The notes under the pieces: model-generated | What the model was told of the DNA's origin: nothing | The model's input: the letters and a program-made list of their open reading frames with translations, nothing else | The model's database searches: none | Shown here: in pieces, positions 4,075 to 19,898 of the stretch | Position numbering within the stretch: position 1 is the stretch's first letter | How the letters are laid out: every line of letters starts with the position of its first letter | Translations under genes and position numbers: made by a program | Assembly: GCA_014630515.1 (NCBI GenBank) | Contig: GCA_014630515.1_4091.1 | Direction: 5' to 3' (one strand) | Source: a phage | DNA: 21,344 nucleotides

Positions 4075-4166
4075 GATACACTTCCGCACCCTATGGGTCA
4101 GTGAGTTATCTCTCAATGGATATATAATAGCAAAGGGACTGACCGGAGTCAATCCCTTTTTTAATC
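4075..4166 (-). repeat. repeat element B: conserved leader motif, embedded promoter, GC hairpin with T-run
   Basis: core GCACCCTATGGGTCAGTGAG; hairpin AAAGGGACTGACCGGAGTCAATCCC plus T6; minus-strand TTGACT, 17 bp, TATTAT (4124-4152). Confidence 0.6.
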
Positions 4167-6070: not shown

Positions 6071-6114
6071 GGTATACATCCTATTAGTTGAGTTAGTACT
6101 ACAAGTTAGAGTCT

Positions 6115-6143
6115 ATTATAAAGTACTATCTGGGCAATGTCAA
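6115..6143 (-). promoter_or_regulatory. early sigma70-type promoter
   Basis: minus strand TTGACA, 17 bp, TATAAT. Confidence 0.6.
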
Positions 6144-6165
6144 ATAGTACTTTAAATGGATTCTA

Positions 6166-7075: not shown

Positions 7076-7160
7076 TAGATACATTTATGCACCCGGTGGG
7101 CTGATTTGTTTCTATGCGTATATAATAGCAAAGGGACTGACCGGAGTCAATCCCTTTTTC
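7076..7160 (-). repeat. repeat element C: conserved leader motif, embedded promoter, GC hairpin with T-run
   Basis: core GCACCCGGTGGGCT; hairpin AAAGGGACTGACCGGAGTCAATCCC plus T5; minus-strand TTGACT, 17 bp, TATTAT (7122-7150). Confidence 0.6.
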
Positions 7161-9695: not shown

Positions 9696-9758
9696 TGTTA
9701 AACGTCCTGTAATGCATTCTAACGAGTTAAACGGTTTAGTACTGGCATTGTATAGGGT

Positions 9759-10223: not shown

Positions 10224-10266
10224 TTTAGTATTCCTTAAATTAATATGCGTTGTCTTGATAAAAGTT

Positions 10267-10295
10267 ATTATGCCAGTACTATCAAACGTTGTCAA
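10267..10295 (-). promoter_or_regulatory. sigma70-type promoter (CATAAT subtype)
   Basis: minus strand TTGACA, 17 bp, CATAAT; same cassette as 14065-14093 and 14361-14389. Confidence 0.55.
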
Positions 10296-10314
10296 TAGTA
10301 CTGTGATAATATTT

Positions 10315-10527
10315 TTAGTTAATGATAGTCAGTGTAAAATTGTAATCCCCTGCCTGGTATAGTACTTTATCGCCGAACGTGCCAACACGTTTCATATTGC
10401 AATAGATACCCATAACACTTTTTACATCTTTGATATTCCGAACACCTGTGATATCCTTGTTGAAATTTTCATGATCAGAAAATAAAACTTGTTTTGCATT
10501 TTTCAGTACAGTGCGGATATTAGCCAT
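10315..10527 (-). CDS. hypothetical protein (70 aa)
   Basis: ATG 10525-10527; GAGGA SD; track start lies in leader. Confidence 0.65.
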   Translation of the reverse strand: MANIRTVLKNAKQVLFSDHENFNKDITGVRNIKDVKSVMGIYCNMKRVGTFGDKVLYQAGDYNFTLTIIN

Positions 10528-11805: not shown

Positions 11806-11892
11806 TTACACTTCCGCACCCGGTGGGCTAGTGAGCTATCTCTCAATGAATATATAATAGCAAAATGGCTGACCGAAGTCAACCACTTTTTT
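11806..11892 (-). repeat. repeat element D: conserved leader motif, embedded promoter, variant hairpin
   Basis: core GCACCCGGTGGGCTAGTGAG; hairpin TGGCTGACCGAAGTCAACCA with compensatory changes relative to A-C; T6 on plus strand; minus-strand TTGACT, 17 bp, TATTAT (11854-11882). Confidence 0.6.
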
Positions 11893-13275: not shown

Positions 13276-13326
13276 GGTATAATCCTCAATATAAGCGGCC
13301 TAAATCGACCGCTAACGATGTTTTGA

Positions 13327-13596
13327 TTAATAGGTGTATGGTTGACGCTCAAACAATGATTGCACGTTGTACGCCCCGCTAATGGGCTTTGCTGGTAAAT
13401 CAATTTTATATTGTTCACGCTTAAAAATAATAAAACGGCAATTGTTTTTAACATCAAAATTGATTGAACGTTCCAATAGCTTTCCTTCGTGTACAAATAC
13501 AAGATAACCGCTTGCTACTTGTTTTGTAGTACTGGTTGCAACCATAGACCGACGAACATGAGTACCTGCATCGATTAAAGTACTGATATTTTTCAT
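13327..13596 (-). CDS. hypothetical protein (89 aa)
   Basis: ATG 13594-13596; AGAGGA SD 7 nt upstream. Confidence 0.7.
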   Translation of the reverse strand: MKNISTLIDAGTHVRRSMVATSTTKQVASGYLVFVHEGKLLERSINFDVKNNCRFIIFKREQYKIDLPAKPISGAYNVQSLFERQPYTY

Positions 13597-13634
13597 TATA
13601 CTATCCTCTTAAGTTAATTTAATTTCTTTCCCCT

Positions 13635-13671
13635 ATGCAGACACTATATCAAAGTATCTGCATAAAGTAAA
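13635..13671 (-). promoter_or_regulatory. atypical promoter overlapped by operator-like inverted repeat
   Basis: minus strand TTTACT, 17 bp, TATAGT; inverted repeat ATGCAGACAC / GTATCTGCAT (one mismatch) 13635-13662 spans the spacer and -10. Confidence 0.45.
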
Positions 13672-13676
13672 GCTAA

Positions 13677-14021
13677 TTAAAGATCTTTTTTGCGTTTAAC
13701 ATCAGTTACCGAACTGTAAACAGTGATATTATTGTCACGGCAAAAACGGGAAAGATAAGAACCGCGTAAAAACTCTTTACCTTCCATATTAATAACCTTG
13801 CTAAATTCTTCCATTGCTACAGTGTCAAAGTGATCCCCGTATCCATATTGGAACGGCACGTTTACTACTTCAATAAAATTACCATCAATTTCTACGTCTA
13901 CACTTAAAGAGAAATAAGTGTTACCATATGAAGCCTGGAACCAACGCCGAGCGGCAATATGTACAACTTCAACAGAAGACAGGTTGATATTTTGTGATGC
14001 GATAGTGTTGATGTTAGCCAT
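13677..14021 (-). CDS. hypothetical protein (114 aa), paralog of 6166..6489
   Basis: ATG 14019-14021; AAGGA SD; C-terminal DVKRKKDL. Confidence 0.7.
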   Translation of the reverse strand: MANINTIASQNINLSSVEVVHIAARRWFQASYGNTYFSLSVDVEIDGNFIEVVNVPFQYGYGDHFDTVAMEEFSKVINMEGKEFLRGSYLSRFCRDNNITVYSSVTDVKRKKDL

Positions 14022-14064
14022 TTTAGTATTCCTTAACTTAATATGTGTTGTCTTGATAAAATCT

Positions 14065-14093
14065 ATTATGCCAGTACTATCAAACTATGTCAA
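14065..14093 (-). promoter_or_regulatory. sigma70-type promoter (CATAAT subtype)
   Basis: minus strand TTGACA, 17 bp, CATAAT. Confidence 0.55.
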
Positions 14094-14112
14094 TAGTACT
14101 GTGATAATAATT

Positions 14113-14325
14113 TTACTTACTTTCTTTCGCTGCTTTATGTGTTGCCACTGCCATAACCACATCAGCACGAACAAAGTTAGCAACCGTATCAGTGTAATAT
14201 TTGATTGCATCGTCAACTTCTGCGAACGTCCGATACATACCACACCAAGATACTTTATAACCTGCTTTCACTTGTTCCAGCTTAACCAGTGTTTTGTTTA
14301 CTTTGATTTTAGTAATGATAGCCAT
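14113..14325 (-). CDS. hypothetical protein (70 aa), paralog of 10044..10223
   Basis: ATG 14323-14325; GAGGA SD 9 nt upstream. Confidence 0.65.
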   Translation of the reverse strand: MAIITKIKVNKTLVKLEQVKAGYKVSWCGMYRTFAEVDDAIKYYTDTVANFVRADVVMAVATHKAAKESK

Positions 14326-14360
14326 TTTTTTGTTTCCTCTTAGTTGTCTTGATAAAATCT

Positions 14361-14389
14361 ATTATGCCAGTACTATCAATCTATGTCAA
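14361..14389 (-). promoter_or_regulatory. sigma70-type promoter (CATAAT subtype)
   Basis: minus strand TTGACA, 17 bp, CATAAT; ~70-bp block repeated from 14040-14110. Confidence 0.55.
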
Positions 14390-14408
14390 TAGTACTGTGA
14401 TAATAATT

Positions 14409-14552
14409 TTACTTACTTTTTGCTTTCTTTGATGCTTCAACCTGGTCGGCCCACTCTTTACCCCATACTTGAGCATTATAATGATACTGGCAAAGAGCAA
14501 CGCCCCGCTTTAAACCAGTAATAGATTTTTTACCACATTGACAAGTTTTCAT
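14409..14552 (-). CDS. small Cys-containing protein (47 aa), not in ORF track
   Basis: ATG 14550-14552; GAGGA SD; CQCG ... CQYH spacing suggests a small metal-binding knuckle; stop TAA 14409-14411. Confidence 0.5.
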   Translation of the reverse strand: MKTCQCGKKSITGLKRGVALCQYHYNAQVWGKEWADQVEASKKAKSK

Positions 14553-14948: not shown

Positions 14949-15102
14949 GTACTTTTTATTACTTTTTGCAAAATACTTTAAACGCCCTCAATCGCATTCT
15001 AACGACCTTAACGCCACCAGCTAGGGCGACGCATCAGATAATCAGTTTAATGCGTTAGAATCGATTCTAGGCGGTGCTAGTGGACTGGAATACTATAGAC
15101 AC

Positions 15103-18799: not shown

Positions 18800-18836
18800 G
18801 CTGTTACCCCTATCGTTGATGTACAAAAAGAACTTT

Positions 18837-18865
18837 ATTATAAAGTACTATCATTTTTTGCGATA
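18837..18865 (-). promoter_or_regulatory. sigma70-type promoter (weak -35)
   Basis: minus strand TATAAT with poor -35; context resembles the 6115-6143 promoter of the paralog. Confidence 0.4.
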
Positions 18866-18884
18866 GTACTTTAAATAAATTCTA

Positions 18885-19663: not shown

Positions 19664-19898
19664 TACTTTCTACATGTACTTTTAAAATAGTTTTCTTTCT
19701 ATATAGGGGAACTATTATTCAGTACTATCATTCAGTACTGAATCAACCAAATCACTACTACACCCCATAAAACGGCCTCAGACGCATTCTAACGCATTAA
19801 TACACCTAAGCTATACATTTGCACCATTCCAATCATTCCAGGGCTTTACGGGCCGTTTAAACGCGTTAAATTATTTTCAATTATTTTGTTTTTAGGTA

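Follow-up and report, generated by a model that had tools for sequence, protein, structure and literature searches.

An operator-like inverted repeat in the early region of an Asteriusvirus jumbo phage is probably the top of a conserved intergenic RNA hairpin lying over a weak promoter

Between two small early genes of a jumbo coliphage lies an inverted repeat that overlaps a promoter-like sequence, and an earlier note on this DNA took the layout for that of a repressor operator. The question raised by this locus is whether the symmetry serves as a protein-binding site in duplex DNA or as a structure in the transcribed RNA. The window, i.e., the whole 21,344-nt stretch that was analysed, belongs to the early-gene (terminal-repeat) region of Asteriusvirus in the 121Q/PBECO4/A4 group; megablast returned phage A4 at 97% identity, with 121Q, PBECO4, and approximately 35 further genomes also matching the region, and in records with determined genome ends the locus falls within a direct terminal repeat of ~21 kb. 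The genes of the window, ~50 small ORFs all encoded on the minus strand, are small orphans, ahead of which there is usually a strong, stereotyped sigma70 promoter together with a 5'-UTR hairpin. Neither Pfam nor PHROG assigned a function to any of the five neighbouring gene products or to the 89-aa protein encoded downstream of the gap. The features of the locus are collected in Table 1.

Table 1. Features of the gap between the 114-aa and 89-aa genes and of its surroundings (positions are those of the window)
Feature	Position	Strand	Remarks
Upstream gene, 114 aa, phrog_6246	13677..14021	-	Half of the Asteriusvirus genomes examined carry a 35%-identical allele instead
Strong sigma70 promoter of the upstream gene, TTGACA-17-CATAAT, "type B" cassette	14065..14093	-	
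Gap between the 114-aa and 89-aa orphan genes	13597-13676		Early genes, same orientation
Whole predicted RNA stem-loop	13618..13681	-	64 nt, 25 bp in three helices, 7-nt apical loop; first base one position ahead of the upstream stop codon
Lower helix, 5' side UUUAAUU	13675..13681	-	Includes upstream stop codon UAA (13677-13679)
Middle helix, 5' side CUU	13670..13672	-	Pairs with AAG at 13626-13628; invariant
-35-like hexamer TTTACT	13666..13671	-	Fits T4/PST PeSL consensus TTTACW; same spacing in the P0003 lineage
Upper stem, 5' arm CUUUAUGCAGAUACU	13653..13667	-	Contains first-noted arm 13654-13663; invariant in 12 genomes
Apical loop UUGAUAU	13646..13652	-	Includes TG (13651-13650) and the first three bases of the -10-like hexamer
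-10-like hexamer TATAGT, preceded by TGn	13643..13648	-	Predicted start ~7 nt downstream, near 13636, inside the 3' arm
Upper stem, 3' arm AGUGUCUGCAUAGGG	13631..13645	-	Contains first-noted arm 13635-13644; invariant in 12 genomes
Middle helix, 3' side AAG	13626..13628	-	
Lower helix, 3' side AAUUAAA	13618..13624	-	
Shine-Dalgarno GAGGA of the 89-aa gene	13604..13608	-	10 nt 3' of the hairpin, free of its pairing
Downstream gene, 89 aa, phrog_14550	13327..13596	-	Beta-rich orphan; conserved across Rak2-like jumbo phages

The inverted repeat lies where the earlier note had placed it, with ATGCAGACAC at 13635-13644 and GTATCTGCAT at 13654-13663 of the plus strand and 9 nt between them. The position and spacing of the 10-bp arms were thus confirmed, but the arms are not perfect, as they carry one C/T mismatch on DNA, which corresponds to a G.U pair in the minus-strand RNA. 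The hexamers TTTACT and TATAGT, separated by a 17-nt spacer on the minus (coding) strand, were likewise found as described, with a TG ahead of TATAGT, and the repeat indeed covers the promoter spacer and the -10 element. The note was also right that the site is unlike the standard cassettes of the window, since a hidden Markov model (HMM) of 33 standard promoters misses it even at E <= 1000; the same model matches ~40 sites in the window. A decayed standard cassette, suggested by eye from the likeness of TATAGTgtctGCATaGGGGAAAGAAAT to TATAATgttttACATcaaGGGGAGAAAT, was rejected because there was no HMM match at that threshold. Inverted repeats of comparable grade (10-bp arms, <=1 mismatch, loop of 3-15 nt) occur at 35 loci in the window, compared with 8.25 +/- 2.9 in dinucleotide shuffles, and ~0.03 of this grade would be expected by chance per 80-nt gap. 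As ~8 such repeats are expected in 21 kb, a chance palindrome in AT-rich intergenic DNA was considered among the explanations of the site.

On the transcribed (minus) strand, the inverted repeat forms the apical helix of an imperfect stem-loop that spans 13618-13681, from the upstream gene's stop codon to a point 10 nt short of the Shine-Dalgarno sequence of the 89-aa gene. Small internal loops part its three helices (15 + 3 + 7 bp), and the 15-bp upper helix formed by CUUUAUGCAGAUACU and AGUGUCUGCAUAGGG includes three G.U pairs. The 94-nt sense RNA was predicted to fold at -25.9 kcal/mol (z = -4.7), a value equalled by none of 200 shuffles, and the fold of the whole stem-loop gave z ~ -5, a stability that none of 300 shuffles matched. 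For the opposite strand, the fold reaches just -17.3 kcal/mol because the three G.U pairs of the sense strand become A.C mismatches in the DNA palindrome or on the other strand. An alternative pairing of the 3' arm with ATGCAGGTAC (13562-13571, inside the 89-aa ORF), which would enclose the Shine-Dalgarno sequence and the AUG, was ruled out, as comparable duplexes of other lineages were inconsistently placed and the main hairpin stayed the minimum-energy fold. No U-tract follows the stem (tail AUAGGGGAAAGAAAUU), the terminator scan made no call there, and no Rfam 15 family matched anywhere in the window at the gathering score. The terminator scan also found no terminator-like site between the strong promoter of the upstream gene and the hairpin, so that read-through transcripts carrying the hairpin would be expected. 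The gap after the 89-aa gene (13276-13326) is likewise without a standard promoter and contains a hairpin of its own, AGCGGUC-GAUUUA-GGCCGCU, with one G.U pair on the sense strand and a stability of -15.6 kcal/mol in sense vs -9.0 kcal/mol in antisense; the annotation of GAP32 has a rho-independent terminator at the equivalent place.

Within the genus Asteriusvirus, 31 of the 39 matching phage records share the central 51 nt at 100% identity. Across 12 aligned genomes, the ~50 paired positions showed no variation, and the apical loop, with three of its seven positions varying, was the sole variable part of the structure. The loop changes comprise G13650T in 121Q, by which the TG is lost, A13649G in CMSTMSU, and T13646C in PBECO4 and CMSTMSU, which turns the -10 into TACAGT. 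Variable columns restart right 3' of the last paired base (13617, 13616, 13615, and 13613), and in the same 12 genomes variation affects six of the ~22 positions that separate the hairpin from the ATG. Furthermore, the upstream gene exists as two alleles whose proteins are 35% identical and both end in ...VKRKKDL. Identity jumps to ~100% at 13690-13703, a few codons before the stop codon, and upstream of ~13703 the genomes form two groups according to the allele of the upstream gene, which places a gene-replacement breakpoint just 5' of the hairpin.

As the stems are invariant within Asteriusvirus, all covariation evidence comes from other lineages. [quoted passage not shown] Six lineages other than Asteriusvirus (the RaK2 group, P0003, P0006, P0009, P0010, and P0011) were compared. 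The upper-stem sequences are unrelated (TTAGCCATCA, ATTACACCAGTA, ATTAACGCCGTTA, TTATATGCCAGTA, and CTTAATATAGCCAGT), with pairing maintained by paired indels and compensatory substitutions; the folds of the relatives beat their own shuffles (z of -3.5 to -9.6), and the sense RNA was more stable than the antisense in seven of the eight sequences compared. In a sequence-only MAFFT alignment of seven relatives, changes on both sides were detected in 12 of 24 consensus pairs, and paired cells amounted to 89%, vs 25-58% with the partners slid by 1-3 columns; none of 500 shuffles of this alignment reached the observed covariation, the consensus structure used for counting pairs having come from the same sequences' own folds. 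The lower helix covaries across lineages as well (TAATTA/TAATTA, TAATTG/CAATTA, and TAATGATT/AATCATTA), and the helices contain 15 wobble pairs on the sense strand without A.C counterparts, vs five for antisense folding.

Moreover, a covariance model (R1) built from the other lineages only, with no Asteriusvirus sequence, had its top match in the window at 13619-13675 (-), scoring 20.5 bits vs 14.8 bits for the next match. At the site the model matched the sense strand only, and it also recovered the site in PBECO4, 121Q, and CMSTMSU. RNAalifold returned no structure from a MAFFT alignment that included Asteriusvirus, because this alignment is structurally inconsistent. The hairpin and the 89-aa gene were found together behind two unrelated upstream gene families. 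In Eneladusvirus and Mimasvirus the same place holds a GC hairpin and a 14-bp-arm AGTACT inverted repeat instead; in Munch-like phages there is no gap before the orthologue, and a search of IMG/VR for related loci returned 121Q only. Collectively, the structure is most likely under selection. A chance origin is already contradicted by the invariance of the stems in 12 genomes, the covarying structural counterparts in six lineages, and the match of the cross-lineage covariance model; with the fold z of ~ -5 also speaking against it, we regard it as extremely improbable.

Two further observations concern the genes upstream of the 89-aa gene in metagenomic relatives. In L062 (a Logan SRR11277278 contig), an HNH/NUMOD4 homing-endonuclease-like gene (80-604) lies directly upstream, overlaps the start of the 89-aa gene, and takes the place of the hairpin gap. 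Two genes upstream of the 89-aa gene, weak matches to Histone_HNS_N (PF22470) were detected in L056 (1-95) and L060 (1-118), and the product in these two relatives could be a DNA-binding early protein.

These data bear directly on the proposed operator, in which a dimeric repressor, either phage-encoded or the 89-aa product itself, would bind the 10-bp arms and block TTTACT/TATAGT. The dyad spans roughly -27 to +2 of the promoter-like site with its extended -10, and its symmetry across the spacer, -10, and +1 is like that of the LexA, LacI, and lambda cI operators; in addition, both arms are invariant in 12 genomes around a variable centre, as half-sites and a spacer would be, and the site differs from the standard cassettes. 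Unlike those operators, the site stands alone in the genome, no cognate protein was found among the nearby genes, its arm sequence differs between lineages, and its symmetry is better in RNA than in DNA. The palindrome was sought elsewhere in the genome, as the earlier note had proposed, and each genome has one copy of it, or two in assemblies that include both terminal repeats; there is therefore no regulon. The arms have been replaced by unrelated sequence, with pairing kept, where the 89-aa protein is still 67-76% identical, which an RNA structure tolerates, whereas an operator would need a co-evolving repressor each time. Conservation and covariation also reach into the lower helices, including the upstream stop codon, beyond any plausible operator, the G.U asymmetry favours the transcribed strand, and in 12 genomes all substitutions within the element fall in the loop, where they affect, among others, the TG and base three of the -10. 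Continuous 10-bp arms with centres 19 bp apart are unusual for an operator.

With respect to a candidate repressor, no DNA-binding domain was detected in the five products of the nearby genes. The 89-aa protein contains neither HTH nor RHH motifs, and its beta-rich model, of modest confidence (pLDDT 67), had no significant match in the PDB (best E = 0.66) and no DNA-binding fold. Thus, nothing favours protein binding to the palindrome beyond the dyad itself, and with a single-copy palindrome, no candidate repressor among the nearby genes, and arms rewritten in other lineages without loss of pairing, the operator interpretation was not upheld and has become quite improbable; the proposal that the 89-aa gene is specifically regulated by a repressor is unsupported, as neither a repressor nor a regulon came to light. 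Among other viruses, 32 IMG/VR contigs match ATGCAGAYAC-N5-12-GTRTCTGCAT, and apart from 121Q they belong to a few unrelated contig families in different contexts, so these matches were set aside as chance or unrelated. Half-sites ATGCAGAYAC with <=1 mismatch number 10 in the window vs 2.25 expected; the eight extra copies are scattered singly on both strands, mostly in coding DNA, and no meaning was read into them.

The site could alternatively be a decayed relic of an AGTACT-bearing promoter palindrome of the type B cassette (CAGTACTAT..ATAGTACTG), without any current regulatory role and maintained solely by hitch-hiking or as a joint for recombination. The arms CAGATACT/AGTGTCTG do resemble CAGTACTG, the hairpins of P0003, P0009, and P0010 contain CCAGTACTG, the next-best matches of model R1 are type B cassettes, and other genera have the AGTACT inverted repeat mentioned above before the orthologous gene. 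A relic would hardly be expected to keep its pairing through many compensatory substitutions and paired indels, or to show no variation at any stem position in 12 genomes where neighbouring non-coding positions do vary, and we consider this origin very improbable.

The type B cassettes themselves (14057-14115, 14353-14411, 10260-10317, 2823-2879, 6107-6165, and 18828-18884) are true DNA palindromes with arms ATTATCACAGTACTAT / ATAGTACTGGCATAAT, 9 bp of which are perfect and ~16 bp of which pair with 2 mismatches. Their arms flank the -35 TTGACA, the -10 lies within the 3' arm, and model R1 gives them similar scores on either strand; they resemble operators more closely than the site at 13635-13671 does. 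AGTACT, a palindromic hexamer, has 133 copies in the 21.3-kb window vs 6.55 +/- 2.9 in shuffles, 48 of them inside called ORFs, and in a 50-kb structural-gene region of phage A4 (L066, 150000-199999) it occurs 78 times vs 15.2, i.e., ~5-fold. In promoters it stands at fixed places (AAAGTACTTGCA; CAGTACTGTATAAT), and close to the beginning of the 89-aa gene it is read in-frame as Ser-Thr codons in all lineages; a literature search on the AGTACT hexamer returned nothing. Four further cassettes on the minus strand (2200-2235, 4121-4156, 7119-7154, and 11851-11886) have TTGACT-17-TATTAT inside a hairpin GGGATTGACTCCGGTCAGTCCC, each followed after ~30 nt by a conserved CCCAnnGGGTGC, of which there are six copies in the window, and the combination may represent a short conserved transcript or leader. 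In addition, CGTTAGAATG-N10-CGTTT(T/A)A was identified in three copies on the minus strand (9698-9724, 14978-15004, and 19768-19794), and in Eneladusvirus and Mimasvirus this motif, as ACGCTTAGAAT..CGTTTTA, is found ahead of the orthologue of the 89-aa gene; it may be a second, non-standard promoter class.

The promoter-like hexamers were compared with two consensus sequences. The site matches TTGACA/TATAAT at 9 of 12 positions plus the TG, and 16 such sites occur in 3.5 kb vs 11.1 expected, so that this sigma70 match is at chance level in such AT-rich DNA. It matches the T4-type early consensus TTTACW-N17-TAYWAT, published for the PeSL promoters of the T4/PST pair (PMC4122927), at 11 of 12 positions. 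At <=1 mismatch this consensus occurs 10 times in the window vs 3.26 expected, and we estimate ~0.006 chance matches per gap of this size. In the P0003 lineage TTTACT-17-TGaTATGCT is present at the same spacing, with a stem of different sequence between the hexamers. The hexamers are conserved only in the two closest lineages, Asteriusvirus and P0003, being absent from the RaK2, P0006, P0009, and P0010 versions of the gap, and within Asteriusvirus both the TG and position 3 of the -10 vary. A middle promoter of the T4 MotA type (TAGCTTTA + 11 nt + TACTTT), seen by eye, had no support from the relatives. A literature search for a transcriptome of any Asteriusvirus or Rak2-like coliphage returned none, and from the sequence the chances that the predicted promoter is active appear evenly balanced.

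Given the observed structure, conservation, covariation, strand asymmetry, single-copy status, and nearby breakpoint, the inverted repeat is probably the top of a conserved intergenic RNA hairpin over a weak promoter, in a layout like that of the promoter-early stem-loop (PeSL) cassettes of T4-type phages (Arbiol et al. 2010, PMC2839356; Comeau et al. 2014, PMC4122927), and not a repressor site. By analogy, the gap may best be read as a PeSL-type composite, in which a sense-strand RNA stem-loop that would attenuate or process read-through RNA is laid over a weak promoter of the T4-early type. PeSL stem-loops lie mostly between the -35 and -10 or over the -10, with G-T pairs marked in them; they act as terminators or attenuators, one of them having lowered reporter expression to the same degree as the rrnB T1 terminator did; and the cassettes flank shuffled ORFans and serve as crossover points (PMC2839356). 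The present cassette follows the same plan, running from the upstream stop codon through an AT-rich stretch, TTTACT-N17-TGnTATAGT, and a stem-loop over the spacer and -10 to the Shine-Dalgarno sequence and the ATG. Its stem-loop occupies the region between the -35 and -10 and extends over the -10, as is commonest among the PeSLs, and like them it has G-T pairs in the stem and a gene-replacement breakpoint (~13690-13703) adjoining it. A sigma70/T4-early-like promoter, with the 11/12 match given above, is predicted within it.

In the corresponding mechanism, we infer that RNA polymerase starting at the promoter of the upstream gene would transcribe the entire hairpin, which would attenuate or terminate the read-through RNA or would be its point of processing or stabilization; either action would shield the 89-aa gene from transcription that arrives from upstream. 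Transcription may then restart from the embedded weak promoter, near the predicted start, giving an mRNA without the hairpin. A repressor would be unnecessary in this scheme, and the conserved cassette may double as a recombination joint for exchange of the upstream gene.

The analogy has its differences. The phage is a Rak2-like jumbo phage and not a classical T4-like one, and the cassette is single-copy with a unique sequence, whereas classical PeSLs are near-identical repeats over ~100 bp; in this window the repeated cassettes are the ~33 standard ones, which are themselves PeSL-like. The single-copy status lowers the case for a classical PeSL, not the case for an element that works like one. 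With its 25 bp in three helices, the hairpin also far exceeds the PeSL stem-loops in length, and it is AU-rich where theirs are polyG/polyC; several related lineages lack the promoter part, and terminator and promoter activity are here predicted from sequence. Compared with intrinsic (Rho-independent) terminators, it shares a stable hairpin directly after a stop codon and differs in having no U-tract, a moderately GC-rich stem, and no call from the consensus scan.

Alternatively, the locus may consist of an RNA hairpin only, i.e., an intercistronic element for processing or stability (of the RNase III type or 5'/3' protective), with the hexamers accidental in its AT-rich loop. RNase III processing hairpins lie between the early genes of phage T7, and such sites are the nearest alternative model of how the hairpin might act. 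The T7 hairpins are likewise long, imperfect, and intercistronic with internal loops, and they lie in a polycistronic early mRNA made by the host RNA polymerase from strong promoters, as may apply here; unlike them, the present hairpin has no sequence similarity to T7 sites, and its cleavage would be hypothetical. Its imperfect duplex totals about 25 bp, in three coaxial helices parted by small internal loops; this reaches the minimum length of an RNase III substrate (~20 bp or more of imperfect dsRNA) and falls within the size range of such substrates. Furthermore, the hairpin is conserved in lineages without the promoter-like hexamers and accompanies the downstream gene behind two unrelated upstream genes, and the standard cassettes of the window also have a hairpin a few nucleotides before the Shine-Dalgarno sequence. 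Accidental hexamers are difficult to reconcile with TTTACT-N17-TGnTAT being kept in two lineages despite a rewritten stem between, or with the 11/12 match to the published T4-type early consensus, and a hairpin alone is thus possible but unlikely.

It was also considered that the hairpin is no generic PeSL stem-loop but an RNA element dedicated to the 89-aa gene, because it follows this gene behind two unrelated upstream genes despite complete rewriting of its arms. Such an element might be specifically processed, or it might be bound by an RNA-binding regulator; if the beta-rich 89-aa protein were itself that regulator, this would amount to post-transcriptional autoregulation of a conserved Rak2-like early gene; we hold this to be a doubtful proposition of low probability.

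Taken together, the composite of hairpin and weak promoter leaves current understanding unchallenged, and its effect is small when taken alone. For an "operator-like" palindrome over a phage promoter, an RNA stem-loop should be the first reading to test. For annotation, model R1 provides a structure-conserved, sequence-variable marker for the 5' side of a gene conserved in this group. More broadly, the early terminal-repeat region of Rak2-like jumbo phages appears to be organised with the kind of promoter/stem-loop cassettes that drive gene shuffling in T4-type phages.
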